A stretch of 50,212 nt of DNA, taken from positions 1 to 50,212 of the IMG/VR virus record IMGVR_UViG_3300048901_000333; one strand, 5' to 3'. Within the stretch, counting starts at the first letter, position 1; every line of letters starts with the position of its first letter. The translations under genes and the position numbers were made by a program. Positions 3,795-50,212 of this stretch are shown piece by piece. The stretch is from a virus. Lineage: Duplodnaviria > Caudoviricetes. The notes beneath the pieces were generated by a model, which did not search any database, was not told the origin of the DNA, and was given only the letters and a program-made list of their open reading frames with translations.

Positions 3795-5275
3795 GGGTTC
3801 CCCGCGACGCGCCGCTGGATCTGCGCGATGGCGTTGATGCGGAACTTCTTCGGCGAAGCCTGGCCCTTCAGCTCGAAGATGACCTGGCCCGAGACGATGC
3901 GGATGCGCGCGCCGCTGTGCGGGTCCGTCGCGCCGTTCGCGCTCGAGATGCGCGAGACCGTCGCCTTCGCCGTGAGCGTGAGGTTGCCGCCCGTCGTGTC
4001 GCCGGTCTCGTGCGACGCGATGAGCGTCCCCGAATTGTCGCGGCTGACGAGGATCGGGCCGTACTGCGTGAAGCCGCTGTCGGGGTTCGCGGAGACCGTG
4101 TCGCTCGCGCCGGAGAAGTCGCCCGAGAGGACCTCGAAGATGAGGACGGCGAAGGAGTTGTTCGGGACGGTGCCCCCGTTCGGGTACGTCGCGACGGGCA
4201 CCCAGCTCGTCGCGTCGGTGAGGTACGCCGGCGCGCTCGCGCTCTCCTGCTCGTACCCGGAGCCCGACGCCGTCGTCATGTCGGTCGCCGGCATGAGCGC
4301 CTTCGCGCCCGGCGCGCCGAGGACGTTCGTGCTGCCGGTGCCATCGATCTGCGTGACGGTGGGGTTCGGGTAGGTCCCCCCGAGCGAGCCGCCGGCGGCG
4401 CCGAGGGGCCCTGTCGGCCCCGTGGCCCCCGTCGCTCCCGTCGCGCCCGCGGGCCCCGTCGGTCCTGTCGCGCCGGCGGCGCCATCGGCCCCCGCGGGTC
4501 CCGTCGGCCCCGTGGCGCCCACGCCAGCCGGCCCCGTGGGCCCCGTGATGCCCTGCAGCCCATCGGCCCCCGTCGGCCCGGTCGGCCCCGTGACGCCCGC
4601 TCCCGTGGCGCCGGTGGGCCCCGTCGGCCCCGTCGGGCCCGGAGCTCCGGCCCCGGTGGCCCCTGTCGGCCCCGTGGGCCCCGTCGGCCCGACCGAGCCT
4701 GCGCCGCCCGGCCCCTGCACGCCCTGCGGCCCCTGCGGCCCCGTGGGGCCCGTCGGGCCCGTGGCGCCCGTGGCGCCGACGCCATCGGCCCCCTGCGGCC
4801 CCTGCGGCCCCGTGGGGCCCGTCGGCCCGGGCGTCCCCGCGCCGCCCGCCGTCCCTGCGGGACCCGTCGCGCCCGTCGGCCCGAAGGGGCCCGTGGCTCC
4901 GGTCGGCCCCGTCGCGCCCGTCGCGCCCGGAGCTCCCTGGAGACCGCCCGGCCCGACGAGCGAGCCCGCCGGCGCGACCGTCGCCGCAGCGGCGTTGCCG
5001 GAGTAGCCGAGGTTCTTGAGCGTGACGTGCGTACCGTCGCCCGCGCTGATCACCTGCAGGCTCCCGAGCTGGTCGACGACGACGACCTGGCCCGGCACCA
5101 TCGCGGCCGACGTCGACACGTGCGCGATCGCCGTGCCGCCGACGGCGGGCATCGCGTAGTCGTCGAGGAGGAGCGCGTTGCCGACGCCGGCGGGACCCGT
5201 GGGGCCCGCGACGGTGGACGCCGGGCCCGGCGGCCCCTGCAGGCCAAGGGTGACGATCTCGAGGACCTCGTCCAT
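3791..5275 (-). CDS. Collagen-like (Gly-X-Y) fibre protein
   Basis: Long GPT/GAT/GPQ triplet run; start [17 protein letters not shown] in a TGATG overlap. Confidence 0.85.
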
Positions 5276-5640: not shown

Positions 5641-5659
5641 GCGGCGGAACCTAGGCCCG

Positions 5660-8718: not shown

Positions 8719-9948
8719 CTACTTGCTCCCCCCGGCCGCGGCGGTGGGCTTCCGCCAGCGTTCCTTCTCGCGCGTCTGGTAGGCGGCGTCGGCCTTCGCC
8801 ACCGGGTCCTCGTCGCCCTCGTCCTCGCGCTCCTGCGCGCCGCCGCCAGCGTCGCTGCGCGAGCCCGCGCCCGTGCGGGGAGGAGGCGCCGCGCGGCCGC
8901 CGCCCGGCGACGCCGAGCGCGTCTTGCCGAGCGCCTTCGTCGCCGCGTCGTGCCGGCTCGTCACCGCGCGGAAGGCTCCGGCGATGAACGCCTCGGCCCC
9001 CTCGGCGTCCGCCTTCGCCTCGGGTGCCTGGAGCACCTCGGGCTCGAGCTTCGCGAGGACCTCGCGCCGGATGGCGTCGTCGCTCTTGCCCGTGTGGGTC
9101 CACTTCGCGTCGAGGTGCGTCTTCGCCGTCGCGATGAGCGACGAGCGCGCCTCGACTCGCGCGTCGACCCGCGCCTGCTCGGCCTCGGCGCTCGCGGCGT
9201 CGTCACGCTCACTCGCCTCTTTCTTGAGGCGCGCGTTCTCCGCCTTGAGCGTCGCGAGCTCGCCGCGGAGCTCCGCGGCGTCGTCCTTCGGCGTCGGCGT
9301 GCCGCCCGCCGGCGTGTCCTTGCCCTTGCCGCCTTCGTCCTTGGTGCTCACGGGCGGAACGTAGACGCCGGGCTCGATCCCGCTCACCGCCTCCCCCGCG
9401 TCGAGGTGGAGCTTCACCTGCGGGCCCATGCGGCCCCAGCCCTTGGGTCCGAGCGCGACGTGGTTGCCACGGATGTCCCGTTGCACGGCGTCGTACGGCT
9501 GCCCGTTCCACACGCCCGGCGTGCGATCGAGGCGGCACTGGTAGCCGCACGAGATCTCCGCGAGCTCCTTCTTCTCGGCGCGGTCCATCGTGTCGGCGTC
9601 GCCGAGGAAGATGTCCGCGTCGGCGAAGGTGTTGTCGCGCGCCTCGGGCTGACCCGTGTGCCCGACGGTCACCTTCTTCCACGTCTTCGGATCGACGAGC
9701 CCGCCGGGGTGGTCGACCGTCACCGTCGCGTGCGCGAACGAGTCGAGCGTGTCCTTCGAGAGGACCTCTTCGGGCGGCCGGAGCTCGCGCAGGATGCTCC
9801 CGTCGGGCTGCTTGTATTCGAAGACGCCGGTGCGCGTGATCGTCGCGCGCGCGACCATCCCCCCGTGCGGCGTCTGGCGGCGGGGATTCTGGAGCTCGCC
9901 CTGCGCCAGGTCGAAGCGGAGCTCGCGGTGCACGATCTCGTCTGCCAC
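8719..9948 (-). CDS. DUF2213-family prohead protease/scaffold
   Basis: ITRTGVFEY, ELRPPEEV, VTVDHP, EISCGY and NHVAL...GR motifs plus a coiled-coil tail. Confidence 0.9.
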   Translation of the reverse strand: MADEIVHRELRFDLAQGELQNPRRQTPHGGMVARATITRTGVFEYKQPDGSILRELRPPEEVLSKDTLDSFAHATVTVDHPGGLVDPKTWKKVTVGHTGQPEARDNTFADADIFLGDADTMDRAEKKELAEISCGYQCRLDRTPGVWNGQPYDAVQRDIRGNHVALGPKGWGRMGPQVKLHLDAGEAVSGIEPGVYVPPVSTKDEGGKGKDTPAGGTPTPKDDAAELRGELATLKAENARLKKEASERDDAASAEAEQARVDARVEARSSLIATAKTHLDAKWTHTGKSDDAIRREVLAKLEPEVLQAPEAKADAEGAEAFIAGAFRAVTSRHDAATKALGKTRSASPGGGRAAPPPRTGAGSRSDAGGGAQEREDEGDEDPVAKADAAYQTREKERWRKPTAAAGGSK

Positions 9949-9971
9949 GCCGCGAAACCTAGCTTCGGCGC
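9949..9971. promoter_or_regulatory. Bidirectional leaderless promoter (AACCTAGCTT)
   Basis: TAGGTT on the minus strand 7 nt before GTG 9948; TAGCTT on the plus strand 6 nt before GTG 9972. Confidence 0.65.
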
Positions 9972-11576
9972 GTGATCTACGACGCGCACGGTCGCCCCTA
10001 CGAAGCGCCGGTGAAGCGCGCCGACGGCTGGGAGAATTTCTCCACCGGGATCGGCACGCTGGGGGACAAGACGACGCGCGGCCGCTTCACCACGGTCCAG
10101 CGTCTCAACGACACCGAGCTCACGAACCTCTTCAACGGCTCGAGCATCGCGGCCAAGGTCGTCGAGAAGCGCCCGACCGAGATGTTCCGGGCGGGGTACA
10201 AGCTCAAGGCCAACGACGTCGGCGAGGACGACGCGAAGGACCTGCAGGACTACGCCAACGAGGAGCTGCACGTCGACGAGTGGTTCCTCACCGCGAAGGT
10301 CTTCGAGGGGCTCTACGGCGGCTATCTCCTGGTGCTCGGCGCCGACGACGGCGGCATGCCGTGGGAGCCGCTCGTCGAGGAGCGGATCAAGACGTTCGCG
10401 TGGATCAACGGCATGGACCGCCGCTTCGCGTACGTGAACGAGTACTACCCCGACGACCACCCGAAGGCGGGGCAGCCGATGACGTACCTCACGTCCAACG
10501 CGGTCGCGACGCCCTACTCGGGGACGAAGCTCCGCGGCGGACTGAAACAGACGAGCGCCTCGAGGCTGCGCGCCGCCGGCTTCTCGACCGCCATCATCCA
10601 CGAGACCCGGTGCATCCGCTTCGGCGGCGTGCGCACCGACGTCCTGTCGATGCAGTCGCTCGCGGGCTGGGGCTGGTCGCTGCTCCAACGCATCTACGAC
10701 GGCCTGCGGAAGTTCGAGCACGCGTTCGACGCGACCTCGTACCTCCTGAGCGACGCCTCGCAGGCCGTCTTCAAGCGGAAGGGGCTCTTCTCCGCCATCT
10801 CGAACGGGCAACTCGACGCCATCCGCCAGCGCCTTCGGCTCCTCGAGGAGTGGCGCTCGGTCGCGCACGCCGTGCTCCTGGACTCGGAGGGGGAGGAATT
10901 CGAGCGCGCGCCGACGAGCTTCGCCGGCATCTCCGACCTCCTCGACAAGATGATGCTCAAGTTCGCCGCCGAGGCGGACACGCCGGTCACCGAGATCTTC
11001 GGGCGCGCCGCGAGTGGCCTGAACGCGGCCGCCGGCGCCGATAGCGAGACGCGCAAGTGGTACGACAAGATCCGCGGCGAGCGCGAGACGCAGCTCGCGC
11101 CCATGCAGCGCCGGGTCTACCGGCTCATCGCGCGATCGCAGGACTGCCCCGTCACGCTGCCGAAGGGTGACGCCGCCAGCGGCATCAAGTGGACGATCGA
11201 CTACGGCGCGCTGTGGGAGCCGACCGACCAGGAGCAGGCCGAGACCGACCTCAAGGTCGCGCAGCGCGACGCCATCTACGCCGGGCCCAGCGGCATCGGC
11301 GCGTACACCGCCGAGGAGATCGCGATCGAGCGGCAGCGTCTCTATCCGTCGGCCGACATGGAGTCGCGCGAGGCGGCGATCGAGGGGGCGACCGCGTTCG
11401 ACCCGTACGAAAACGACGAGCCCGACGAGCCGCCGCCCGGCACCGTGCCGCCGGGCACGCCGGCCCCTCCAGGTGCGCCGCCGGCGCCCGTGCCCCCTCC
11501 CCCGCCGGCGCCGGCGGGGAAGCTCCCCGCGAAGAAGACGGCGAAGAAGACGCCCCCGCCGACGAGGGGCGCGTGA
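9972..11576 (+). CDS. Portal protein (DUF1073-like), inverted relative to other head genes
   Basis: RADGWENF.TG.G, WGWSLLQ, TPVTEIFG and LWEPTD.E.AE motifs; Pro/Lys-rich tail. Confidence 0.85.
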   Translation: MIYDAHGRPYEAPVKRADGWENFSTGIGTLGDKTTRGRFTTVQRLNDTELTNLFNGSSIAAKVVEKRPTEMFRAGYKLKANDVGEDDAKDLQDYANEELHVDEWFLTAKVFEGLYGGYLLVLGADDGGMPWEPLVEERIKTFAWINGMDRRFAYVNEYYPDDHPKAGQPMTYLTSNAVATPYSGTKLRGGLKQTSASRLRAAGFSTAIIHETRCIRFGGVRTDVLSMQSLAGWGWSLLQRIYDGLRKFEHAFDATSYLLSDASQAVFKRKGLFSAISNGQLDAIRQRLRLLEEWRSVAHAVLLDSEGEEFERAPTSFAGISDLLDKMMLKFAAEADTPVTEIFGRAASGLNAAAGADSETRKWYDKIRGERETQLAPMQRRVYRLIARSQDCPVTLPKGDAASGIKWTIDYGALWEPTDQEQAETDLKVAQRDAIYAGPSGIGAYTAEEIAIERQRLYPSADMESREAAIEGATAFDPYENDEPDEPPPGTVPPGTPAPPGAPPAPVPPPPPAPAGKLPAKKTAKKTPPPTRGA

Positions 11577-11821: not shown

Positions 11822-12670
11822 ATGGTCACCGTCTCCGACCGCGAGGTCCTCGCGCGCATCCTGGATTACCAGCGCGCCGCGGCCTCTCCCACGCGCGCCG
11901 TGCGCGCCCGCGCCGCACGTCTGCTCCGCGCCTCGCCGGCGGCGGAGTCGCGCTACGTGCGGGACCTCCGCGGCGTCATGAAGGGCGTCCACGCCGGCGT
12001 CGTCGCCGCGATGGAGCTGCCGAAACCGGAAGTCCACACGCGCACGAACCGCCTCGACGCCGTGAAGGTCCTCCCGCCCCAGACGGAGCGGCGGCTCTTC
12101 GCGTACATCGCGAAGCACGTCGGCCCCGCGTTCGACCGCATGGGGGCGGCCGTCGACCGGAGCAACGAGGAGGGGAACGCGCTCCTCGGCATCCGCCCGG
12201 GCATGGTCCCCGGCGCGAACGGCGTCCTCGCCCAGGCGCGCGAGGACAACATCCGGCTCCTCCAGCGCGCGGCGCAGAAGTACGTGAAGGACGTCGAGGG
12301 CGTCCTGCGCGACCCGGACAACCTGGGCCTCCGCGTCGAGGAGCTCGCCGACCTCCTCCAGGAGCGGGCCGACGTGAGCGAGTCGCGGGCGATGCTGATC
12401 GCGCGCGATCAGACGCTCAAGACGAACGCCGCGCTCACGCAGTACCGCCACCGCGCCGTCGGCGTCTCCCGCTACCGGTGGTCGACGTCGCGGGACGAGC
12501 GCGTGCGGCCGCTGCACGAGGCCCTCGAGGGGCAGACGTTCGCCTACGACGATCCGCCGGTCACGACCGAGAGCGGCGAGACGAACAACCCGGGGGAGGA
12601 CATCCAGTGCCGCTGCGTCCCCTTGCCGGTCTTCGGGGACTTCGAGGAGCCGGACCCGGAGGAGGGGTGA
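11822..12670 (+). CDS. Minor head protein (SPP1 gp7/Mu F family)
   Basis: RAMLIARDQT, YRWSTSRDERVRPLH and PGEDIQCRC motifs. Confidence 0.92.
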   Translation: MVTVSDREVLARILDYQRAAASPTRAVRARAARLLRASPAAESRYVRDLRGVMKGVHAGVVAAMELPKPEVHTRTNRLDAVKVLPPQTERRLFAYIAKHVGPAFDRMGAAVDRSNEEGNALLGIRPGMVPGANGVLAQAREDNIRLLQRAAQKYVKDVEGVLRDPDNLGLRVEELADLLQERADVSESRAMLIARDQTLKTNAALTQYRHRAVGVSRYRWSTSRDERVRPLHEALEGQTFAYDDPPVTTESGETNNPGEDIQCRCVPLPVFGDFEEPDPEEG

Positions 12671-13300: not shown

Positions 13301-13326
13301 CGCCGCGAAGCTAGGATTCGCGCTCG

Positions 13327-14211: not shown

Positions 14212-14342
14212 GCCGCGAAGCTAGTCGGAGAAGGCGTTGTTCATCGCGTCGGCCATGGGGCCACCTCCGCGCGTCCAGGCTCGCGCCGAACGAGACGAAT
14301 GGAAAGCGCGCCGTTACACTGCAGCACACCACGGAGGTCACG

Positions 14343-14826: not shown

Positions 14827-16386
14827 TCAGCTCCCGAGGAGCGAGCCCCCTTCGCGCCCCAGGCGCCCCATGGCGTGCATCCACAGGCCGCCGCCGCCGT
14901 TCGTGGCGACGTGGTTCAGGAGCGCGACCGCGGGGGCGTAGTCGCAGTGGCGGCCGTCGGCCGTGATCGGGAGCGCGATGCGCTGCGACTGGTTCGTCAC
15001 GACCTTCCGCACGGCGAGGAGGTCCCCTTTGACGTACGGGTCCGGGTGCAGCTCGAAGGTCGCGCCGAGGACGCGCATGCGGAGCGCGTCGAACATCTTC
15101 ACGATCTCCGCCTGGGTCATCTTCACCTGCGTGATCGTGAGCCCCATCGTACCCGCGAGGTCCACGATGAAGTCGCTCGCGTAGCCGTCGCTGTGCACCT
15201 CGTTGACGCCGTACGCGGCGAGGTCCTTCCGGATCTCCTCGAGGACCTCGCGGGGCTTTAGCGGGTTCGAGGGCGTGGGCACCCACTGGCGCGCGTACGC
15301 CATCTCGATCGACGTGTTGCCGTTGTCGTCGAAGCGCAGCGCGCCGATGACGAGCGTCCAGGCGTTCCGCCGCGTCGCCGGGTCCATCGCGGCGAAGTAC
15401 GGCAGGCGCGGGTCGCGCGGGAGGTTCCACGCCTTGTGCTTCAGCGTCGCGTGCCGCGTCACCCGCTCGAGCTCCGCCATCGTGAAGAACGCGCTCTCCG
15501 GGTCGGCGAACTCGCCGAGGAAGTCGGTCGTGTAGACCCATTCGCCGCGCGGGCTCGATCGCAGCTTCGCGATCTGCGCGTCGGTCCAATAGACGGGGTT
15601 CATCGCGCGCGACGGCGGGCGGAGCACGACGAGTTGGGGCGAAGGCTTGCCCCACTTCTCCTGGACCATGTCGTACGCGGGCCCGCGCGGCGCCCACGGG
15701 GAGCCGAGGCCCGCGAGCTGCGCGCCCGGGAGGAGCCGCCCGAGGACGGCCTTGCGGGAGTCGTCGAAGTTGATCGCGCTGCCGTCGTCCTCGCCGTTCA
15801 TGCGCGGGAACTCGTCGAAGATGCACCCCGCCGACCAGTCACCGACGAGCGAGCCGCCGGCGCTCGCCCCCGCGGCGATCTCGATGCGGACGACACGCCC
15901 GTCGTCGGGCCTCCGAATCCACACGCACGACTCCGTCGGCTCACGCGCGAGGAGCGGCCGGAGCGCGGGCTGCGTGCGCAGCGGCCCGCGAAGGTGCCGC
16001 ATGATGATTTTCGCCTTCTTCAGCGTGAGGCTCAGCACGCTGACGCACGGCTCCTCCCACGGGCGGAGGTTCGAGAGGTCGACGGTGAGCGCGCAGCGCA
16101 CGGCGAGCGCCGCGCCCGTGAGGCTCTTCGCCGTGCGGATGCCCGAAAGCAGGTAGACCTCGAGCGGCTTCGTGAGGATCGACGGGAGCTCGGCGCCGGC
16201 GGCGACCCCGAAGGCGCGCTCGAGCGAGGCCCGGAGCTCGGGCTCGCCCTCGAGCGCGGGGGCTTGCTCGACCAGGTCGTCGAAGGGGAGGCCGTCGAAG
16301 ATGCGGCACATCGCGCGCTGGCAAAGCGTCGCGCCGGTGAGCCCGAACCCGTTTGGCGAGGTGAGGAGCTGCTCGAGCGTGATCAC
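14827..16386 (-). CDS. terL: Terminase large subunit
   Basis: Walker A-like SGIRTAKS, Walker B CIFDEF, GSPW, FLGEF, nuclease AAMDPA and HCD; GTGA-coupled start. Confidence 0.85.
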   Translation of the reverse strand: MITLEQLLTSPNGFGLTGATLCQRAMCRIFDGLPFDDLVEQAPALEGEPELRASLERAFGVAAGAELPSILTKPLEVYLLSGIRTAKSLTGAALAVRCALTVDLSNLRPWEEPCVSVLSLTLKKAKIIMRHLRGPLRTQPALRPLLAREPTESCVWIRRPDDGRVVRIEIAAGASAGGSLVGDWSAGCIFDEFPRMNGEDDGSAINFDDSRKAVLGRLLPGAQLAGLGSPWAPRGPAYDMVQEKWGKPSPQLVVLRPPSRAMNPVYWTDAQIAKLRSSPRGEWVYTTDFLGEFADPESAFFTMAELERVTRHATLKHKAWNLPRDPRLPYFAAMDPATRRNAWTLVIGALRFDDNGNTSIEMAYARQWVPTPSNPLKPREVLEEIRKDLAAYGVNEVHSDGYASDFIVDLAGTMGLTITQVKMTQAEIVKMFDALRMRVLGATFELHPDPYVKGDLLAVRKVVTNQSQRIALPITADGRHCDYAPAVALLNHVATNGGGGLWMHAMGRLGREGGSLLGS

Positions 16387-16772
16387 CGGAGCCCTGCCCG
16401 GGAGAGCAGCTCGACGAACGGACACGTGGGCTTGTGCCTCGACGGCTCGGGATATTTACGCGCAGCGCACCATGGGCAGATGGTGAGGCCGCCAACGTCA
16501 CCTCCGCTCCACTCCGCGTCGAGGAGCAAGCGGGCCATGTCCGGTGCGCAGCCCTCGCCTGAGGCGCGGCCGTGCGCGAGGCCTCGTTCGTACCAGAGCT
16601 TCGCGATCGTGTCGGCCTCGCCGCCGCAGCGTTGGCACCGCCACCGCTTGCCGAAGGAGGGCGGCTGACCGGGCGTCGTGTCCTCGAACGCGTGTGGCCC
16701 AGGGCAGGCATCGAGGGCGGCGCTGTTCGCCTTCACCTTCTCCCAAAGGGCCTTCGCTTCGTCGGCGGTCAT
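16383..16772 (-). CDS. Cys-rich hypothetical protein
   Basis: ATGA-coupled; CQRC and CPWC. Confidence 0.65.
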   Translation of the reverse strand: MTADEAKALWEKVKANSAALDACPGPHAFEDTTPGQPPSFGKRWRCQRCGGEADTIAKLWYERGLAHGRASGEGCAPDMARLLLDAEWSGGDVGGLTICPWCAARKYPEPSRHKPTCPFVELLSRAGLR

Positions 16773-17320
16773 CCCAGCGCTCCTTCCAGTCCTCCCGCGC
16801 CCCACCCGCCGCCGGCGTCGCCGCCGCTCCCCTTCCCCTTCTTCGCCCCCGTGCGGAGCTGGACGAGCTGCGCGAGGAAGCGCAGCGCCGCGAGCATCGA
16901 GTTGGCGCGCGCCGGGTCGAGCGGCGCGGTGGCCGCGAGCTGCCGCGCGATGCGCATATGCCTCTTCGTGCCCTGCTCGCCCTCGAGCAGCTCCTTCACG
17001 AGCGCGCCGAGCTCGCCCTCCTCGAGGACGACCTCCACGGCGACGCCGGCGCGGAGCTCGGTGTGGATGCGCGCCACCTCGCGCGCGATCTTGTCGAGGC
17101 TGCCGAGGGGGCCGTCGAGGTCGCCGGGCTGCCGCCGCTTGGCGCCGTTCGCGCGACGCTCGTCAGCGAGCGCGGGGTCGTGCGACCGGCAAAACGCCTG
17201 CCCGGCCTTGAGCCAAGCGATGCATTTTACGGTCTTTCCGGGGGGGCCGGGGCAGCGGCGCCGAGCGGGGGTCGCCGGCGCGTTGCCGGGCGGGTCACCG
17301 GGGCGGGTCGGAGGGGTCAC
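16769..17320 (-). CDS. Possible terminase small subunit
   Basis: N-terminal C-C-CxxH knuckle and helical body, upstream of terL; start uncertain. Confidence 0.4.
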   Translation of the reverse strand: MTPPTRPGDPPGNAPATPARRRCPGPPGKTVKCIAWLKAGQAFCRSHDPALADERRANGAKRRQPGDLDGPLGSLDKIAREVARIHTELRAGVAVEVVLEEGELGALVKELLEGEQGTKRHMRIARQLAATAPLDPARANSMLAALRFLAQLVQLRTGAKKGKGSGGDAGGGWGAGGLEGALG

Positions 17321-17606
17321 GCCGGGAAGGAGTAGACGCGAGCTCCTCCCAGCACTGCTGGACGAAGGGCCCGAGGCGCGCCCCGTTGTACCCGGCCGCG
17401 CGCAGCATCTTGAGGGCGTGACGGAGGAGTACCCCGGCCATCCCGCACGCGATCTGCTCATCGCGGGAGGCGATGCCGGGCTTCCAGGTCCAGCCCTGGG
17501 CCTCGCGCGCGCGCCGGAGGAGCACGGCCTCGAGCTCCTCGGTCAGCACGCGGTTCAGGCGATCGAAGCACGCGCGGTTCGTCTCTGCGTCGAGGGGCGG
17601 GATCAT
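17295..17606 (-). CDS. Hypothetical protein
   Basis: ATGA-coupled start MIPPLDAE. Confidence 0.6.
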   Translation of the reverse strand: MIPPLDAETNRACFDRLNRVLTEELEAVLLRRAREAQGWTWKPGIASRDEQIACGMAGVLLRHALKMLRAAGYNGARLGPFVQQCWEELASTPSRRDPSDPPR

Positions 17607-17692
17607 CGGGCACGCGTGATGAGCCAGAGCGGGACGATGATCAGGACGACAAAGATGAGCAGACGCGCAACATGCTCGATCGAGTCGATCAC
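17603..17692 (-). CDS. 29-aa single-TM peptide
   Basis: VIDSIEHVARLLIFVVLIIVPLWLITRAR, translationally coupled at both ends. Confidence 0.55.
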   Translation of the reverse strand: MIDSIEHVARLLIFVVLIIVPLWLITRAR

Positions 17693-17976
17693 GCGGCCTT
17701 GCCTGCGTCGACGACGCGCCGGCGCGCGCCCTTCGCCGGGAGCTCGCGGAGCTGGATGCCGCGCTTCTCGAGCGATCGCAGGATGCGGCGGATCGTCTTC
17801 GGATGGACGGGCTTCCCCTTCTTCCACCGCTGGAGCGTCCACCACGACAGGTCCGTATCCGCGACGACTTTGGCGAGCTCCTGGTCGTCGATGGCGATCG
17901 CGGGCCTGACGCGGATGTTCCGCTGGCTAGGCCGCGGCGGCGGCCGTTTGCGAGTCGTGGGCTTGTCCGTGGCCAT
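17689..17976 (-). CDS. Cro/XRE-like HTH protein
   Basis: ELAKVVADTDLSWWTLQRWKKG; GAGGAGG SD. Confidence 0.6.
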   Translation of the reverse strand: MATDKPTTRKRPPPRPSQRNIRVRPAIAIDDQELAKVVADTDLSWWTLQRWKKGKPVHPKTIRRILRSLEKRGIQLRELPAKGARRRVVDAGKAA

Positions 17977-17997
17977 GTCCACCTCCTCGTCCCGAAG

Positions 17998-18807
17998 CTA
18001 GTGACGCCCCGGAGATTCAAGGCGCACTTCGTAGTCAGGGGGATCGACGCCACATCGAAGCCCGACCCCCGCGAATGCGCGCACGGGGCTCGGTGACCAG
18101 GGAACGCGGACGCGCGTCTCACGTACGCCGCGCGCGTCGAGCTGCTCGAGGAGCTCGGCGATGGCGACATGCTCTTGGTGAGCGCGCATGATCGAATCGA
18201 GGCGCCCGCGCAGGGTCAGCGCCGGCACGCGCGCCGCGGCCGCGAACCGGCAGTGCACCTCGAGCAGCTCCTCGAGGGCGGTGCGGGGCGCGGGGACGAC
18301 GACCGGCGCCGGCGTCGGCGGCTCGTCGACGACGGGCTCGAGCTCCTCGAGGTCCTCGTCGTCGTCGGAGCCCCCGAGGAGCCGGCCCATGTGGTCGTCG
18401 TCCTCGAAGTAGGCCATGTCCGGCTTCCGCGCGTCGCGGTGAACTTTCACGATTGAAGCCTTCGTGACCAGGCATTGAAGCTCGTGAAAAATCTTCTTTC
18501 GCAGGTAGCCACTCAGGCGCGACTTGCTCGGGTCGTAGCGGTCCATCGCCTTCATGAGCGCGACGCGCCCGAGGTTGAGGGCCTCGTCGATCTCGATGGC
18601 GTTCGCGCCGCGCACCGACGGCCCGCGCGCGAATCGCGCATGCTCCGGTTTCGGCGCCGCGCCGCGGAGCTGGTGCACCAGGGTGACGACGAGCCCCTCG
18701 TTCTGCGCGAGCAGCTCGCCGAGGAGGCGCCGTCGCGTCGCCGACCCGTCCGGTGCGGCGCGGTATCGGTACATGAGGTCGAGATCCAAACGGCCAACTT
18801 CGCCCAT
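17998..18807 (-). CDS. Sigma-70 region-2 protein with an acidic linker and a C-terminal D5/P4-primase-like winged helix; no region 4
   Basis: NEGLV...EALNLGRVALMKAMDRYDPSKSRLSGYL (sigma2); C-terminus LLEVHCRF...RVPA..L...LDARGV...RAFAGVGLR. Confidence 0.75.
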   Translation of the reverse strand: MGEVGRLDLDLMYRYRAAPDGSATRRRLLGELLAQNEGLVVTLVHQLRGAAPKPEHARFARGPSVRGANAIEIDEALNLGRVALMKAMDRYDPSKSRLSGYLRKKIFHELQCLVTKASIVKVHRDARKPDMAYFEDDDHMGRLLGGSDDDEDLEELEPVVDEPPTPAPVVVPAPRTALEELLEVHCRFAAAARVPALTLRGRLDSIMRAHQEHVAIAELLEQLDARGVRETRVRVPWSPSPVRAFAGVGLRCGVDPPDYEVRLESPGRH

Positions 18808-18815
18808 CTCAGACC

Positions 18816-18840
18816 ATCCTAACCGCGTAAATGTACGCGG
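18816..18840 (-). promoter_or_regulatory. Putative leaderless promoter (TAGGAT) with a palindromic operator for the sigma gene
   Basis: TAGGAT 8 nt before the ATG; CCGCGTA-aatg-TACGCGG at 18823-18840. Confidence 0.5.
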
Positions 18841-18850
18841 AAAACGTGGG

Positions 18851-19495
18851 TCAACGTGCGCGTGCGAGGACCTTCCGCACCGTTTCGGGCTGCCACATGC
18901 CGCCCTTCGTTGTCGGGTGCCCCTCGAAGATCAACTGCGTGCAGATTGCACGCAACGAGAATCCCTCCGCCTTGAGAGCATGGATGCGCGCGGCCGTCGC
19001 CGCACCAACCTGCGGTGTCCCGCCGCCGGTCGCACGAAGGCGCGCGAGGCCCTCGGTCGTGCGTTCTGCCGTCCGCTCCCGCTCGCGCGCGCCGAGCGAG
19101 ATGAAGAGCCGAAAGACCCAGATCCCGTCCGCGCTCTTCGTGTCCACGGGGTCGCCGAGGCTCTTCAGCCGCTCGTGGCCGCGGAAGTAGCCGTCGAGCA
19201 GCTCCTCGCCATCACGGACGCACCGCGTCAGGCGGTCGAGCTTGGTGACCACGATCGCGTCGGCCTCGCCGGCGATCAGCATTCCCAGCGCACGGCGGAG
19301 TCCCGGTCGCTCGAGCGTCTTCGCGCTGAGCGCGTCGGTGCAGAACGCGACGAGCTCGCGCCCGGCCCCGGCGGCGAAGGCTTCGATCTGCGCCTTCTGC
19401 AGGTCGAGGCTCACCCCGAACTCCTCCTGATCCTCGGTCGAAACCCGGCTGTAGCCGACCAGACGCTGCGTTTTCCCGGGGATTTGGGGCGTCAA
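18851..19495 (-). CDS. Serine recombinase (resolvase domain plus short recombinase-type DNA-binding domain)
   Basis: GYSRVST, ERPGL and KLDRLTR motifs; start uncertain (TTG 19495 or GTG 19516). Confidence 0.92.
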   Translation of the reverse strand: MTPQIPGKTQRLVGYSRVSTEDQEEFGVSLDLQKAQIEAFAAGAGRELVAFCTDALSAKTLERPGLRRALGMLIAGEADAIVVTKLDRLTRCVRDGEELLDGYFRGHERLKSLGDPVDTKSADGIWVFRLFISLGARERERTAERTTEGLARLRATGGGTPQVGAATAARIHALKAEGFSLRAICTQLIFEGHPTTKGGMWQPETVRKVLARAR

Positions 19496-19557
19496 CGAAC
19501 GGTCGTCTGTGGACACCCCGGGCGGCGGACGGCCGTCAACGGGGGGCGTTGACACCC
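19491..19557. other. res-like subsites
   Basis: Two GTCAACG...GACACCC inverted-repeat elements with different spacers at the recombinase start. Confidence 0.5.
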
Positions 19558-19851
19558 GTCGCCGGCGCCGGGGCGAGGGATCGCCGGCGCCGCTCGACAT
19601 AGAAGGGGGGTCGGGGGGCCGGGGCACGCCTCGAAGGAGTAGGCGGGCCAACAGGGGGCACGTCGGGGAGGCTCGATTCCCCCGTGATGCGTCTTACCCC
19701 GCCGTGCCTCGGGGCCGCACTCCCTCCGCGGTTCAACGCTCGGCGGCTTCATGTTCGCTCACCGCCGAGCTCCCCGTCGAGCAGATGGAATGCGTCGAGC
19801 CTATCGCAGGACGAGGTTGTCCGGCTTCACGTCGCGGTGCACGACGGCGGG

Positions 19852-20313
19852 CTACGCCTCCATCGCGCGAATGATGTCCCGAGCTCGACGCCAGGCCTGC
19901 TGGACGACCCACGAATAGCTGCGTTGGAGGCGCGCGGCCTCCGCGCTCACCTCGGCGTAGATCTGAGCGTCCCAAATGATCGAGAGCCAGCACTCGGCCC
20001 TCGCCGGCGCCTCATCGCCCAAGCAGCGCTGTCGGAAGTACGTCAGGAGCCCTTTCAGGGACTCGCCCGGCCCCGGCGCGCCGCCGACGCGACGGAGAAA
20101 GACCATCAGTTCGAGCGAGGAGTGCACCCCGAGCTTGTCGTTGATCTTCGCGCGGTGCGTTTGGACCGTCTTGATGGAGATCCCGAGCTCGTCGGCGATG
20201 GCCTTGTTCGTCGAGCCCTGCTCGATCAGGCGAACGATGATGGCCTGCGTCGGAGTGAGCGCGTCGAGCGCCTCGCGCCCGAGCTCCGGCCGCTGGTGCC
20301 TCATCGCCATCAT
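19852..20313 (-). CDS. LuxR-type HTH fused to a CdbA-like ribbon-helix-helix domain
   Basis: LTPTQ...GSTNKAIADELGISIKTVQTHRAKINDKLG plus EAARLQRSYSWVVQQAWRRAR; GGAGG SD. Confidence 0.8.
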   Translation of the reverse strand: MMAMRHQRPELGREALDALTPTQAIIVRLIEQGSTNKAIADELGISIKTVQTHRAKINDKLGVHSSLELMVFLRRVGGAPGPGESLKGLLTYFRQRCLGDEAPARAECWLSIIWDAQIYAEVSAEAARLQRSYSWVVQQAWRRARDIIRAMEA

Positions 20314-20413
20314 GGTGGACCTCCGCGAGATGCGCTCGGGCGACGGCGACGGGGTCGCCGACGGCGAGGGGGAGATGCTTCGCGCGGACCTCGCCCATCG
20401 CACCTCGAGAAAA

Positions 20414-20707: not shown

Positions 20708-20885
20708 TTCCTCGCGGCCGACGAATCGTCGGCGTCGGGATGGCCCGAATGTGGGGCAGCGCGAGCTCCCAGGCGCGCTGAATGAGCCACGAGCGCGACC
20801 GATCGAGCCGCCGGGCCTCTGCGTCGATCTCGACCTCGAGTCCCCCCATCCAGAGAGCGACCACGTTTTTGCGCCGGCCGCTCAC
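20682..20885 (-). CDS. CdbA/CdbB-like RHH protein (67 aa)
   Basis: EIDAEARRLDRSRSWLIQRAWELA; GTGA-coupled. Confidence 0.75.
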   Translation of the reverse strand: MSGRRKNVVALWMGGLEVEIDAEARRLDRSRSWLIQRAWELALPHIRAIPTPTIRRPRGNYSPSAPR

Positions 20886-21091
20886 CCCACGCCTCCCCGC
20901 TTCGCGAGGTCGGCCTCGAGCAGCTCGATGAGGTACGCCTTCATCGTGATCCCGCGCGTGGCGACGTGGATCTTCATCTGCCGAAAGAGCGGCGCCGGCA
21001 GGTCGACGACGAGGCGGCCGAGGCCCTCCTCGAGCTGCGTCTTCGCTGCTGACGTCTTCGGCCGCGTGACCCCGAGCTTCGGGCCGCTCAT
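20882..21091 (-). CDS. RHH partition protein (ParG/Omega-like)
   Basis: Basic N-terminal tail plus RLVVDLPAPLFRQMK...GITMKAYLIELL; coupled to parA. Confidence 0.75.
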   Translation of the reverse strand: MSGPKLGVTRPKTSAAKTQLEEGLGRLVVDLPAPLFRQMKIHVATRGITMKAYLIELLEADLAKRGGVG

Positions 21092-21735
21092 GCTTGCCCC
21101 CGCACGGCGCGCCAGAGACGACGCACTTCGAAGGCGGCGTCGCTGTTCGCATCCGTTGTGAGGACGCTCTCGCCGCTCGCCGTCGCCTCAGGGAACGCCT
21201 GGCGCTGGTGGAGTGCGCCGACGACGTCGTACGTCTCGAGGGCCGCCGCGCACGATCGCGCCATGCGGCTTCGCGCGACGGCGCGATTCAAGACGAGGAG
21301 GCGCTTCGCCGGCTCGCGGCCCAAATCATTGCGGAAGCGGTCCGCCTCGTCGAGGACCTTCGCTGTCTCCTCGTAGGCCCAGAGATCGAGTTGGCTGGGC
21401 TGCAACGGCACGAGCACGACGTCGGCCGCCATGGCGGCCGCGCGAGTCATGTCGCCGAGCCGTGGGGGCCCATCGAGGATCGCGACGCCATAGCCCGCTG
21501 AGAGCTCGCGGATCTTCCGAACGGACACCGACGGGCGCGACGAGTCGACGACGTGGATCTCCCGCAGGCGCGAGCCGAGCGGGCGCGCGTACGACCAGTC
21601 AACGGCGGATTGTTGGCGATCGAGATCGATGAGGATCGTGGGCTCGTCCTCGAGGAGCGCGGCGGCAGCGAGGTTGGTGGCGACAGTGGTCTTCCCGCTG
21701 CCCCCCTTCTGGCTCAAGACGGCGATGGTCAGCAT
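21088..21735 (-). CDS. parA: ParA/ParF partition ATPase (type Ib)
   Basis: Deviant Walker A QKGGSGKTT, IDLDRQ, LDGPP; 215 aa with no N-terminal HTH. Confidence 0.92.
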   Translation of the reverse strand: MLTIAVLSQKGGSGKTTVATNLAAAALLEDEPTILIDLDRQQSAVDWSYARPLGSRLREIHVVDSSRPSVSVRKIRELSAGYGVAILDGPPRLGDMTRAAAMAADVVLVPLQPSQLDLWAYEETAKVLDEADRFRNDLGREPAKRLLVLNRAVARSRMARSCAAALETYDVVGALHQRQAFPEATASGESVLTTDANSDAAFEVRRLWRAVRGQA

Positions 21736-21756
21736 GGGCCCGGACGCTACCAGGAA

Positions 21757-21812
21757 ATGAAGGTATAAAGGAATATGCGAATGAAGCAATGAAGGGATGA
21801 AGGGATGAAGGT
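21757..21812. repeat. Seven tandem 8-bp units (consensus ATGAAGGN), putative centromere/operator
   Basis: ATGAAGGT ATAAAGGA ATATGCGA ATGAAGCA ATGAAGGG ATGAAGGG ATGAAGGT directly upstream of parA. Confidence 0.8.
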
Positions 21813-21983
21813 GCGCGCGTAAAGACAGCGAGAAACACTTACGTAACGCGCATTTGTCCCCTGTTCGCGCTCAGGCCGGGACCCGATAGATCGACTCGGG
21901 GGGACCGACTACTTCCCGCGCCCCTGCTTGAGCTTGAGCCCCTCGCCCCGTCTTCACCCGAGCGCCCGCCGGCGCGGGCGAGG

Positions 21984-23033
21984 CTGCTCCATCTCACGAC
22001 CGCCGATGCGATCGCGCGCTGGCTCCTGCACCTCGAGGCCCGGAACGCGTCGCTCTCCACGCGGGAGAACTACGGGCGCGATGTGGCGAGCCTCCTCGAG
22101 CACCTGCGTGCGACGGCGCCGGCCGCCGTCGCCGACGTGCGCGCGATCACCGTATGGCACCTGCGCGCGTGGCTCGGCGAGGGCGCGCAGACGAAGAAGC
22201 CCGCCACCGTCGCGCGCGCGATCTCCGCCACGAGGACCTGGATGCGCTGGCTCCGGCAGATCGGCGCCCTCGGCGAGTCGCCGGCCGACGCGATCGCGAG
22301 CCCGAAGATCACGCGCCCCGCGCCGCGCGTCCTCTCCGTCGACGCGGCGAAGGCCGTGGTCGAAGCCCCGACAGCGCCGCCGGCGACGAGCGGCGGGGGC
22401 CAGATGCCGACGCGCTTCTACCTCACGCGCGACCGCGCGATCCTCGAGCTCGCGTACTCCTCGGGCCTCCGCGTCGCGGAGCTCGAGCAGCTCGACGTAG
22501 GGGACATCGAGTGGACGCGGCGCGAGGTCCTCGTCACCGGCAAGGGCGGCAACGAGCGGCTCGTGCCCTTCGGGCGCCCGTGCAAGGAGGCGCTCCAGCA
22601 GTGGCTTGCGTTCCGGGACCTCGCCGGCGAGCTCCCGGGGCACGGCGACGCGCTTTTCCTCGGCGAGCGCGGGACCCGGCTCGGCGCGCGCTCGATCGAG
22701 CGCCTCGTCGCGAAATGGGGCGCCGCCGTCGGCCAGCCCGCGCTCCATCCGCACGCTTTCCGGCACACCTGCGCGACGCACCTCCTCGAGGGCGGGGCCG
22801 ACCTCCGCGCGATCCAGGAGCTCCTCGGCCATTCCCGGCTCTCGACGACCCAACTCTACACGCACGTCTCCGTCGGCCATCTCCAGCGCGTCTACGCGCG
22901 ATCGCACCCGCTCGAGCGCGCGCGCTGGGCCCGCGCGGCGCCGCTCCTCGCGCGCTTCGCGCGGCGTCGCCGGCGAGCTCGCCGACGGCACGCCTGGAGG
23001 GTGGGATCGGCGGGGATCGACGTTCGTCCTTGA
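21984..23033 (+). CDS. XerC-like tyrosine recombinase (start uncertain, probably non-canonical)
   Basis: GLRVAEL, GKG, HPHAFRHTCATHLL, LLGH, TTQLYTHV and Y..SHP; N-domain helices extend upstream of GTG 22083. Confidence 0.9.
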   Translation: MLHLTTADAIARWLLHLEARNASLSTRENYGRDVASLLEHLRATAPAAVADVRAITVWHLRAWLGEGAQTKKPATVARAISATRTWMRWLRQIGALGESPADAIASPKITRPAPRVLSVDAAKAVVEAPTAPPATSGGGQMPTRFYLTRDRAILELAYSSGLRVAELEQLDVGDIEWTRREVLVTGKGGNERLVPFGRPCKEALQQWLAFRDLAGELPGHGDALFLGERGTRLGARSIERLVAKWGAAVGQPALHPHAFRHTCATHLLEGGADLRAIQELLGHSRLSTTQLYTHVSVGHLQRVYARSHPLERARWARAAPLLARFARRRRRARRRHAWRVGSAGIDVRP

Positions 23034-24480: not shown

Positions 24481-26028
24481 ATGGGTCAGCCCGCCGAGGC
24501 CGAGGTCCGTCTTGCATCACCGTCGCCGTCATCACCGCCCGAAGGTAGGCCGCCGCCGAACGAGTACGGCGGCCGCGTCTCGCTCCAGCCCGAGCTCCCG
24601 GTCCCCGGCGGCTTCGACGTCGGCGACCAGCGCAAGTACCTCGCGAAGCAGCGCCGCCGGCGGCGCTCGAAGATCCAGCGCGTGGAGAACCGCGTGATGG
24701 ACGCGATCCTCGCGAACACCCACTTCGAGACGGGCGTCTGCGGCGCGTCGACGATGGGCCTCGTCGAGCGCGCCCAGTGCTCGCGGAGCCAGCTCTTCGA
24801 GGTGCTCAACACGCTCGAGGGGCGCGGCGTCATCGAGGAGCGCGCCTCGATCGACCCGCACTTCGCCGAGTGCACGCACACGATCGTCGAGGGCTGGGAG
24901 GGCTTCCGCGTCTGCAACCGGATGCGCGCGGCGGCCAGGCGCGCCGGCGTCCCCTTCACCTGCGTCGCGCACCACGGCTGGACGCTCATCCGCTGGCGAC
25001 CGCAACGCGTGTCGGCGCTCGAGGCCGCGTTCGAGGATCGGGCTCCAAATACGCCGCGGCGGCCCAAGGGAGCAGCCGCGAAGGCGCGCGCCAATCGGAC
25101 GCCGACAGGCTCGCTCTACCGGACCGATGTCGAGGACATCAATCGGACCCCGAACCCTGGATCCCAGGATCCATCTACCGTAAGCGGAACTTCTTCTTCC
25201 TCTCCGGCGGAACGTTCAGGCGCGCGCGCGCGAAGCGCGCACGAGGACGACGCTACGCGCTCGGCTGCGCCGAGGTCTAGTGCGCCGCCGAGTTCCCCCC
25301 CGCCCTCGCCGCCGGCAGCGCCGCGCCCGACGACGCCGGAGCGCGCCGTCCCGGCGCGCGTGTCGCCGACGCAGGCGTTCGACGGCTTCGCGCCTCGCGT
25401 CGTCGCGAACGACCCCGCGGAGGAGAGCCGAGAGGCGGGGAGAGCAAGAGTCGGACCGGCGTCGAAGCCGCCCGCCGACGACGTGAACGCCGTGCTCGCG
25501 GCCCATCGAGAGCACGCCGCCGGCGAGAGCCTCGCGGCGTACCCCGCGACGTCGTGGGAGCGTCACCTCGTCGAGCTCGCGCTCGCGGTGTGGACCGTCG
25601 CCGAGCTCGTGCTCGCGATGCGGGGGGTCGCGCGGCGGCCCCGCAACCCCGAGAGGCCCTACGAGCGCCGGCTCGTCTGGCTCCTCGGCCCGAACGCCGG
25701 GCGCGAGGATCGGATCACGCACGCCATCGACGCCGAGCGCGACGCGCAGCGCGCCGCGCGCCTCGAGGCCGAGCAGCGCGTCCGCGAGGCGCCGCACGTC
25801 CACGGGCCCGCGGCGCGCCGACGGCGCGACGAGCCGATGCCGGTGCTCGACATGGCGAGCTACGGCCGCGCGGAGGCGCTGAAGCTGGCCCGCGAGGAGC
25901 TCGCCGAGAAGCGCAAGGACCTCGCCGACGCGTTCGGAGACCCCGCAAAGACCGAGGCGGCGTATCGCGCGGTCCTCGTCGCGGAGGAAGCGCTCGCGCG
26001 CCTCGAGGCGCCTCGAGGTCGGTCGTGA
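24481..26028 (+). CDS. Putative replication initiator with an N-terminal winged HTH
   Basis: GASTMGLVERAQCSRSQLFEVLNTLEGRGVI; internal 24-bp-spaced repeats and a Pro-rich linker (lambda O-like layout); may start at 24436. Confidence 0.6.
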   Translation: MGQPAEAEVRLASPSPSSPPEGRPPPNEYGGRVSLQPELPVPGGFDVGDQRKYLAKQRRRRRSKIQRVENRVMDAILANTHFETGVCGASTMGLVERAQCSRSQLFEVLNTLEGRGVIEERASIDPHFAECTHTIVEGWEGFRVCNRMRAAARRAGVPFTCVAHHGWTLIRWRPQRVSALEAAFEDRAPNTPRRPKGAAAKARANRTPTGSLYRTDVEDINRTPNPGSQDPSTVSGTSSSSPAERSGARARSAHEDDATRSAAPRSSAPPSSPPPSPPAAPRPTTPERAVPARVSPTQAFDGFAPRVVANDPAEESREAGRARVGPASKPPADDVNAVLAAHREHAAGESLAAYPATSWERHLVELALAVWTVAELVLAMRGVARRPRNPERPYERRLVWLLGPNAGREDRITHAIDAERDAQRAARLEAEQRVREAPHVHGPAARRRRDEPMPVLDMASYGRAEALKLAREELAEKRKDLADAFGDPAKTEAAYRAVLVAEEALARLEAPRGRS

Positions 26029-37255: not shown

Positions 37256-37279
37256 CGCGCCGGGGAAGGTAGACGGGCG

Positions 37280-41893: not shown

Positions 41894-41902
41894 GGCCGAA
41901 AC

Positions 41903-42088
41903 CTAGGCGCGGCGCATGAACGTCCCGCGGCGCGGCTTCCAATGGACGCGCCTCATCCTCGAGGAGTGCCAGCGCGTCGCCTGCGCCGCGGCGTGCTCCT
42001 CGCGGTAGACGAAGTCGGAGACCAGCTCGGCGGCGGGGTCCTGCTCGAGGACGAACCCGTCCGCGACCAGCGCGTCGGGGGGTGCCAT
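41903..42088 (-). CDS. Hypothetical protein (61 aa)
   Basis: Promoter motif upstream; its TAG is part of the next motif. Confidence 0.5.
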   Translation of the reverse strand: MAPPDALVADGFVLEQDPAAELVSDFVYREEHAAAQATRWHSSRMRRVHWKPRRGTFMRRA

Positions 42089-42115
42089 GCGGCGAAACTA
42101 GCGTCCAGGTAGACG

Positions 42116-47512: not shown

Positions 47513-47537
47513 GCGCGGAACCTAGCCGCGCCGCACC

Positions 47538-49389: not shown

Positions 49390-49413
49390 GGCCCCCGGAA
49401 CGTAGACGTCGGG

Positions 49414-49869: not shown

Positions 49870-50212
49870 GCCGCCGAACGTAGCGGCGCCGCGACGTCGT
49901 TCGCGGGGCGCCGCCGGCGACGGAGGAAAGCGGCGCCGGCGAGGAGGCCGAGCGCGCCCCAGGTCTGCATGTCCTCGCGCGTGACGCCGCGCGCGACGGT
50001 GAAGGGCGTGTTGTAGCGGTTGTGCGCGTAGTGCTCATGCCGCCGAACGTAGCGGCGCCGCGACGTCGTTCGCGGGGCGCCGCCGGCGACGGAGGAAAGC
50101 GGCGCCGGCGAGGAGGCCGAGCGCGCCCCAGGTCTGCATGTCCTCGCGCGTGACGCCGCGCGCGACGGTGAAGGGCGTGTTGTAGCGGTTGTGCGCGTAG
50201 TGCTCATGCCGC
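49863..50212. repeat. 169-bp tandem duplication (two copies plus 12 bp) at the contig end
   Basis: 49863-50031 = 50032-50200; 50201-50212 begins a third copy. Confidence 0.9.

Follow-up and report, generated by a model that had tools for sequence, protein, structure and literature searches.

A phage sigma factor family joining region 2 to a primase-type winged helix, with candidate -10-only late promoters

Introduction

Sigma factors without region 4 (sigma4), such as T4 gp55 and SigI, are rare, and we found none described that carries a DNA-binding domain of a replication protein instead. A gene of this build lies in a phage record of 50,212 nucleotides, which is called the window here. Its presence raises the question of what promoter such a protein would read, and what the foreign domain would do in the place of sigma4. 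A first-pass annotation of the sequence had proposed a late sigma with a swapped DNA-binding domain, and had suspected that the architecture was undescribed. Indeed, no description of a sigma region 2 (sigma2)-winged-helix architecture was found in the full-text literature; supplementary survey tables and subscription journals could mention it, and the family is apparently undescribed.

Results

The gene joins a sigma domain to a winged helix

The sigma gene and its parts are laid out as follows.
17998..18807, minus strand: sigma2-winged-helix gene P0001, an open reading frame of 269 aa with GC3 0.86 and four homologues at 46-73% identity
18445..18807, minus strand: sigma region 1.2 and region 2 domain, aa 1-121, identified by Pfam, profile and fold, with a predicted beta' clamp contact
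18286..18444, minus strand: acidic/proline linker, aa 122-174, modelled at low confidence (pLDDT 55-72)
18052..18285, minus strand: winged helix of RFX/P4-alpha/D5 type with a basic wing, aa 175-252 (pLDDT 93-98)

Both the reading frame and the peptides quoted for it in the first-pass annotation were recovered at 17998-18807, and the gene does stand at the head of the minus-strand late block. A 7.5-kb contig covers the locus with zero differences and may itself be the source of the window DNA. For P0001 alone, Pfam Sigma70_r2 gave an E value of 0.0048, under the cut-off; across the family, the same model matched 56 of 85 members. The family profile matched SigA with an E value of 1.5e-12 and SigB with 2.1e-12. 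An AlphaFold model of P0001 based on a deep alignment reached a mean pLDDT of 85.5, with two confident domains and a loose linker, where an earlier fold built on five sequences had been poor (pLDDT 58). Residues 1-121 aligned with SigB (Z 9.8, rmsd 2.7, 90 aligned), and the other structural matches were pro-SigK (Z 9.7), SigI6 (9.3) and WhiG (9.2). The region 2 assignment was thus borne out by Pfam, profile and fold together, and the domain also holds a region-1.2-like part that the annotation had not included. An aromatic residue occupies position 101 in 76 of the 85 members, which we take to be the equivalent of sigma70 Y430, and the DNA-facing side of region 2 is conserved in the family. 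By the fold and sequence of region 2, P0001 belongs to the sigma-70 family. A PHROG scan of the protein matched only the general sigma families 351 and 17569, not gp55, and NCBIfam gave generic sigma matches only; gp55 was not among the best 60 of 72 PDB sequence matches, and Foldseek against the PDB returned nothing at E<=0.001.

The C-terminal domain has a different origin. Residues 172-255 aligned with RFX5 (Z 9.4, rmsd 3.8, 79 aligned), RFX1 (1dp7; Z 9.0, rmsd 2.6, 73 aligned) and the origin-binding domain of phage P4 (1ka8; Z 6.7, rmsd 3.0, 74 aligned). Viral and Atlas structure matches were largely C-termini of primases or helicases, with Atlas models of D5/DUF5906 primases at TM 0.62-0.73. 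At the sequence level, hhalign matched the family C-domain profile over 80 columns (96%, E 4.8e-9) to the C-terminal part of a primase-helicase of P4 type encoded by a Polyangiaceae-family genome. D5_N and DUF5906 were both confirmed in that protein. Pfam Pox_D5 matched only 2 of the 85 family members (best E 0.0063). Fold and sequence homology therefore place the domain among the D5/P4-alpha/RFX winged helices, as had been judged by eye. EutC, which came top of an Atlas feature search, is probably a wrong match. The reported lack of sigma4 also held, since neither Sigma70_r3 nor Sigma70_r4 matched any of the 85 members at E<=0.05 (Pfam) and the C-terminus does not model as sigma4. Because fold and sequence both support it, the chimera is real. 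With a winged helix as its C-domain, P0001 is not a group 3 sigma (sigma2, sigma3 and sigma4), and without sigma4 or -35 conservation it is not a group 4/ECF sigma (sigma2 and sigma4, with -35/-10 promoters). Nor is it a P4/D5 primase-helicase, as no SF3 helicase domain is present in the 269-aa chain.

Within the winged helix, R193 is kept in 78, R234 in 67 and G247 in 80 of the 85 members. The median net charge is +6, and the first strand and the wing hold the conserved arginines; these are the elements through which RFX touches DNA, according to passages of PMC2777425. The linker is as acidic and proline-rich as had been noted, with a family median net charge of -9 and a length of 32-134. 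Profile alignment to full-length sister sigmas extends into their sigma3, and in many relatives the linker is a sigma3 remnant.

A family of chimeras and its sister sigmas

A profile search from five sequences gave 152 representatives at E<=0.001, of which 103 passed 1e-10 and 44 passed 1e-30. Both sigma2 and winged helix were found in 94 of 155 collected proteins, a count that is partly circular, the domain profiles having been cut from the 85-member alignment, and that includes a few near-copies. The chimera is a family, not a single oddity.

A sister clade (P0086, P0111, P0135 and L135) keeps sigma3 and sigma4, and the N-terminal domain matched its profile by hhalign at 99.9% (E 4.7e-34). 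In a tree built on sigma2 only, with 88 rows and 129 columns (40 of 90 winged-helix rows and the short proteins were left out), a branch with SH-aLRT 91 parts 17 of 17 sigma4-bearing rows from 50 of 50 winged-helix rows, under a midpoint root only. This topology is compatible with a single swap of sigma4 for the winged helix. Four proteins nested among the winged-helix rows (P0020, P0094, P0115 and P0120) bear a Cro-like helix-turn-helix (HTH) in the winged helix's place, and that HTH is a homologue of the gene lying 3' of the sigma gene in the window, G001, G002 and G003.
17689..17976, minus strand: Cro-like HTH gene (Pfam HTH_26 E 0.047; own profile E 1.4e-11), adjoining the sigma gene in four carrier phages

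In the sigma4 domains of the sisters (n=15), the -35-reading helix is unconserved and the structural positions are kept. The ancestor was likely a group-3-like phage sigma that already needed the -10 box alone, and its idle sigma4 slot was probably refilled later by unrelated DNA-binding domains.

Several other arrangements were seen. Besides the Cro-like HTH, sigma2 is also joined to a MarR-like winged helix and to HTH_38 (P0127, P0056); the sigma2 of P0056 is nearly identical to that of P0022, and P0056 may be an assembly chimera. In a second family (P0107, P0112, P0125, P0131, P0134, P0144; L230:80-1276), sigma2 is missing and the same winged helix is combined with a helical domain and a sigma4-type HTH; one copy, in a Polyangiaceae-family genome, adjoins by eye an IstB/DnaC-like ATPase. 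L136:9920-10828 (in G005), P0150 and P0152 are sister sigmas with an unrecognised, possibly decayed sigma4 C-terminus. The sigma4-like middle of P0099/P0105 was apparent only and was not confirmed.

Scans for further loci gave 18 candidate stretches in viral sequence, 186 candidates in metagenomes and 57 in genomes, none of them confirmed, and a degenerate DNA pattern gave 120 loci with no family member. The 50,697 INPHARED records held no match for the sigma gene or for the sigma4-only gene of the window. No sigma2-winged-helix prophage was found in 383 Polyangiaceae-family genomes or in 401 genomes of the order, where six candidates per genome were scored, so this result means 'not found' and not 'absent'; the three matches in the 383-genome scan were one sigma4-winged-helix protein and two ordinary sigmas. 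A weak test for longer fusions, of 584-2000 aa, found none. A terminase query returned only G001, leaving no close gene-less phage as a control.

A start-linked motif precedes the late genes of the window

CTAGNTT had been put forward as the promoter of this sigma. The heptamer occurs in 9 copies against 1.85 expected, and none of 100 shuffles reached that number. The motif is real and linked to start codons; the proposed form was too narrow, the fuller consensus being C-TA-n-n-TT, which includes CTACGTT and CTACCTT. Since these two copies hold no stop codon, the idea that the motif is a mere TAG stop was rejected. The circle formed by the record carries 15 sites, 14 on the minus strand, and the lone plus-strand site precedes the portal gene. 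ATG or GTG follows 5-10 nt on at 13 of the 15, and 6-7 nt on at 11 of the 15 (P 2e-12). As for the remaining two, one overlaps the sigma stop and is followed by a Shine-Dalgarno (SD) word and ATG, and one has no start. Nearly all start-linked sites stand before late genes, and the motif was found before none of nine plus-strand early genes inspected. The sites are listed below.
17995..18001, minus strand: predicted late promoter CTAGCTT over the sigma stop codon, with an 18-nt leader containing a Shine-Dalgarno before the Cro-like gene
14218..14224, minus strand: predicted late promoter, 6 nt before ATG 14211
13308..13314, minus strand: predicted late promoter, 7 nt before ATG 13300
9956..9965, both strands: predicted overlapping divergent promoter pair sharing CTAG, for portal (plus, GTG 9972) and DUF2213 protease/scaffold (minus, GTG 9948)
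9358..9364, minus strand: predicted promoter inside the DUF2213 gene, 6 nt before the in-frame GTG 9351, which is probably a start of its own for the scaffold
5648..5654, minus strand: predicted late promoter, 7 nt before ATG 5640
49877..49883, minus strand: predicted late promoter, 7 nt before ATG 49869, with a second copy at ~50052 that comes from the assembly overrun
49399..49405, minus strand: predicted late promoter, 9 nt before the DUF3383 (sheath-like) gene
47519..47525, minus strand: predicted late promoter, 6 nt before the tail assembly chaperone gene
42095..42101, minus strand: predicted late promoter, 6 nt before ATG 42088
41900..41906, minus strand: predicted late promoter, 6 nt before the captured sigma4-only gene (41195-41893)
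37266..37272, minus strand: predicted late promoter, 10 nt before ATG 37255
24542..24548, minus strand: motif copy antisense in the early block, with an unverified ORF starting 6 nt on

The copy at 24542..24548 is the sole start-linked site outside the late block. A site equivalent to the one over the sigma stop lies near the end of the sigma gene in G001 and G003. The in-frame site within the DUF2213 gene recurs in G001 (22162), G003 (36837) and G004 (24895, with that phage's own motif), and such an internal motif suggests that the scaffold has a leaderless transcript to itself.

A hexamer at -12 to -7 from the start codon, with a 6-nt gap, is the textbook leaderless geometry, and transcripts from C-TA-n-n-TT sites are probably leaderless. 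An SD word was seen at 0 of 13 short-leader sites in the window and at 2 of 66 over five phages; at the other sites, SD and start follow in 7 of 33, and the long-leader site of the window does carry an SD. Few SDs at short leaders and an SD at the long one fit a DNA-level signal better than a ribosome-binding one. Downstream genes of the operons (capsid, tube, tape measure) have SD-like words instead of the motif.

The sigma gene itself is preceded by a different box.
18816..18821, minus strand: TAGGAT box, 8 nt 5' of the sigma ATG, of the host type TAnnnT and without the late C and TT

This box is likely the sigma gene's own promoter. In G001, TAGCAT lies 7 nt from the sigma start, and a TAnnnT-type box was not seen before the sigma gene in G002, G003 and G007. 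A palindrome at 18823-18840 was dropped as an operator candidate; it is missing in G001 and altered in a low-depth related contig.

The motif in related phages and in host-type DNA

The co-occurrence of gene and motif, which the first-pass annotation proposed to check, is clear in three related carrier phages (G001, G002 and G003) and weak in a fourth (G007), the motif standing before homologous late genes. The shared targets are the divergent portal/protease pair, the internal scaffold start, the tail chaperone and the baseplate wedge, and the divergent promoter pair itself is also present in G001, G002 and G003. Starts follow 6-7 nt after the motif at 10 of 19 sites in G001, 13 of 22 in G003 and 12 of 30 in G002. 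For G007 the figure is 3 of 13, which is not significant (P 0.065), with 7 of 13 at 5-10 nt. The start-linked motif is specific to the phages: in Myxococcota DNA (80 loci, 705 kb, taken around one gene and not from the true host), only 2 of 103 copies were start-linked against 5.4 expected. Such host-type DNA holds the 7-base promoter 7.3 times per 50 kb, and TAnnnT is the host-type -10 consensus too.

Two contrast phages carry other sigma types. G004, with a full sigma2-3-4 protein, has C-TA-n-n-CT-GAT at the homologous genes, with 12 of 20 copies 5-6 nt before a start (P 4e-11), while CTAnnTT is start-linked there in only 1 of 4; no clear -35 element was seen at 13 of its sites. After this motif (L135/G004), GTG follows at 5 nt almost always. 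In G005, whose sigma has a third kind of C-terminus, CTAG lies 12-13 nt before starts at 7 of 12 strand-sites, the same distance as in the carriers, and the palindromic CTAG often serves both directions. The link between gene and motif is a co-occurrence over five carrier and two contrast phages, and the contrast phages may differ in host.

An upstream element was sought in several ways. The 65 pooled sites gave no upstream consensus (top column 0.14 bits versus a null 95th percentile of 0.20), and per-genome searches of low power (7-18 sites each) gave no element; one word in G000 and one in G007 were borderline, 4 of 60 and 3 of 60 nulls respectively scoring as high. The only shared over-represented 7-8-mers were codon-like words, and no convincing iteron array was found in 17.5-30 kb. 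Depletion of stray CTAnnTT reached significance in G002 and G003 only; it was borderline in G007 and not significant in the window and G001, so it is not used as support.

A probable late sigma with a proposed DNA tether, and the rival readings

Modelling against the beta' clamp had been proposed together with the late-sigma idea. When the P0001 sigma domain was paired with the beta' clamp taken from the RpoC of a Polyangiaceae member, the score was 0.68 versus 0.02 for the best control, though a textbook pair such as this may pass on the predictor's prior knowledge of it. Runs agreed in at least 78% of contacts, with a partner pLDDT of at least 76; the mark set for the complex score is reached by 116 of 157 solved pairs and 2 of 215 mismatched pairs. 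The predicted contacts place P0001 residues 26-33 and 70-85 on clamp residues 283-299, which is the usual interface. Sigma2 thus docks in prediction, and core binding by P0001 is predicted; the modelled complex shows likeness, not binding.

We give a probability of roughly 60% to the reading that P0001 is a late sigma whose sigma2 sits on the beta' clamp and reads C-TA-n-n-TT, with the winged helix as a DNA tether. Sigma2 would dock on the clamp of the host RNA polymerase and open the -10-only promoter, yielding mostly leaderless mRNAs for the packaging, head and tail genes, and the winged helix would grip upstream double-stranded DNA with little sequence preference, standing in for the lost sigma4. 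The modelled folds of both domains, the motif data and the tree support the earlier proposal of a -10-recognising late sigma with a swapped DNA-binding domain. It is quite likely that P0001 itself reads the motif; the tether function of the winged helix we rate at slightly better than even. A sequence-tolerant tether is favoured because a DUF5906 helicase and an upstream motif were not found and because a Cro-like HTH can replace the domain. The helicase was found in none of the five carrier records (60-99% complete), while the control was detected in 5 of 14 genomes, and the replication genes of the carriers differ by eye from phage to phage; together with the Cro-like replacement, this leaves the suggested coupling to replication through a D5-type replisome unsupported. 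The winged helix of P4 alpha is a sequence-specific binder. RFX winged helices also bind specific sequences according to parts of PMC2777425, so a distant specific site is possible for P0001; the same passages report that no preferred sequence was detected for the domain of this class in pRN1 ORF904, which was studied as a DNA-binding domain.

A bolder form of the idea, which we hold to be rather unlikely, is that a single protein chain combines the jobs of T4 gp55, gp33 and the gp45 clamp, with the origin-binding domain loading the sigma onto phage or replicating DNA to scan for the promoter. If it were true, late genes would fire while identical 7-mers on the host chromosome stay silent, and the clade would be evidence that the sigma4 position is exchangeable, with a winged helix or a Cro-like domain occupying it.

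The winged helix could also sense phage or replicating DNA specifically, by way of an origin-like site, forks or ends, and restrict late transcription to such DNA; this is the coupling to replication that the first-pass annotation had suggested. The donor domain in P4 alpha binds the origin (1ka8), T4 ties its -10-only late promoters to replication (in parts of PMC2988020 and PMC7892883), and a 7-base promoter as frequent in host-type DNA as 7.3 per 50 kb would make further discrimination useful. We nevertheless consider a sensor unlikely, given the missing DUF5906 helicase in the carriers (0 of 5 records, against 5 of 14 genomes for the control), the lack of any shared 7-8-mer beyond codon-like words and of a convincing iteron array in 17.5-30 kb, and the Cro-like HTH that can take the domain's place.

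Alternatively, the domain may contact proteins, either mimicking sigma4 or gp33 on the beta flap or offering a dimerisation surface for pairing with another factor. The P4 origin-binding domain dimerises, and the same winged helix is joined to sigma4-type HTH proteins (P0112, P0134, P0144). A precedent for a non-homologous flap binder is gp33, as described in part of PMC2988020. However, no sigma4-winged-helix gene was found in the four whole carrier records scanned or in the 21 kb around the sigma gene in G007, and the conserved surface residues are mainly the wing arginines, which makes a contact module distinctly unlikely.

It is improbable that P0001 is a decoy on the core polymerase while a host sigma reads the motif or the motif is a translation signal. 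Core binding is predicted under either reading, and the motif fits TAnnnT and sits where a ribosome-binding site would. Yet copies in host-type DNA show no link to starts, the motif differs between phages with different sigma types, a separate SD follows it when the leader is long, the capsid, tube and tape measure genes carry SD-like words instead, and the DNA-facing side of region 2 is conserved. A split sigma, made of P0001 and the sigma4-only protein of 41195-41893, is very improbable: that gene has a Pfam Sigma70_r4 match above the cut-off and sits behind a late motif, but it was captured from a host (its identity to Polyangiaceae copies is ~80%), a sigma4-only gene was found in 0 of 8 related phage records (the syntenic G001 is 99% complete, the others 38-89%), and there is no -35 element for it to read.

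Relation to known systems

As a probable late sigma with a presumed tether, P0001 comes closest in kind to T4 gp55, a late sigma cut down to sigma2 that uses a -10-like element without -35 conservation and a separate polymerase-DNA tether (as given in parts of PMC7892883 and PMC2988020). The two share sigma2 without sigma4, a late promoter that for P0001 is -10-only by motif analysis with predicted start sites, and a presumed tether; the gp45-complex chain 7d7d_F aligned with P0001 at Z 7.8. Unlike gp55, to which no sequence homology was found, P0001 probably derives from a group-3-like sigma. Its presumed tether is the fused winged helix, whereas that of T4 is the sliding clamp with gp33, neither of which was found among the window ORFs scanned (general Pfam/PHROG profiles, part of the ORFs). 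The carriers also differ from T4 in being phages of ~50-100 kb, with an integrase in that of the window, and in a CTAnnTT promoter with leaderless geometry. The family would thus be a second, independent answer to late transcription from -10-only promoters, given by one small protein.

SigI of Bacilli and Clostridia likewise joins sigma2 to a C-terminal domain without sigma4 homology (parts of PMC10575876), and SigI6 matched P0001 at Z 9.3 over residues 6-120 only. In contrast to SigI, which reads a -35 A-tract and has an anti-sigma, P0001 ends in an RFX/P4-type domain and not in SigIC, and its phages show no upstream element or A-tract. The group 3 sigmas (SigB/SigF/SigG, FliA/WhiG) and the phage sisters are homologous to P0001 in regions 1.2-2, and the sister in G004 belongs to a similar phage, whose motif is a related one of -10 type; unlike all of these, the P0001 family has no intact sigma3 or sigma4. 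The C-termini of the P4 alpha, D5 and pRN1 ORF904 primase-helicases and the RFX domain share the fold of the winged helix with detectable sequence homology, but in P0001 the domain is free of a helicase and fused to a transcription initiation factor. The dCas12f-sigmaE system reportedly retains sigma4. There, too, an unrelated DNA-binding module supplants -35 recognition (parts of PMC12259091); unlike P0001, it is RNA-guided, a separate protein and paired with an ECF sigma, with no homology.

Three sigma types with three promoter motifs at homologous genes form a natural series, which opens two questions to direct tests: the requirements of a minimal sigma beyond region 2, and the identity of the region-2 residues that set the -13, -8 and discriminator bases. 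With the motif, the late operons of uncultured myxobacterial phages and their internal starts can be annotated, and P0001 is a candidate compact orthogonal sigma with a 7-base promoter.

The phage and its setting

Because the first 120 bases of the window recur at 49912, the record is a circle of ~49.9 kb with an assembly overrun. At 49863-50212 a 169-bp overrun repeats the circular junction; CheckV completeness is nevertheless 60%. The window is a whole phage record with portal, DUF2213 protease/scaffold, major capsid, sheath-like, tail chaperone, tape measure and baseplate genes, and also a XerC-type integrase, ParA and a resolvase. The terminase genes were placed at 14827-16425 and 16769-17461 by position and eye only; neither had a Pfam or PHROG match. 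The host is likely Polyangiaceae, judging from the captured sigma4-only gene, which is ~80% identical to proteins with named Polyangiaceae copies. Matching runs came from soil and root metagenomes.

The captured gene itself (41195-41893, minus strand) combines a Cys-rich motif with sigma70 region 4, resembles at ~80% identity a very widespread Polyangiaceae protein (5463 matches) and lies among baseplate genes. Portal (9972-11576, plus strand) and Mu-F head morphogenesis (11822-12670, plus strand) are inverted relative to the rest of the late block, a layout shared with G001, and the divergent portal/protease pair is found in G002, G003 and G004. The XerC-type tyrosine recombinase (22083-23033, plus strand), the serine resolvase (18851-19651, minus strand) and ParA (20882-21789, minus strand) with a small partner are syntenic in G001, and this set suggests a plasmid-like prophage state. 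Upstream of parA, 21756-21814 holds five imperfect purine-rich repeats spaced at 8 nt, a parS- or operator-like array. Two LuxR/GerE-type HTH genes were seen at 40887-41198 and ~20012-20398 (both minus strand), one of them within the tail module. Imperfect internal repeats of 72-75% identity occupy 4390-4936 in the tail fibre region.
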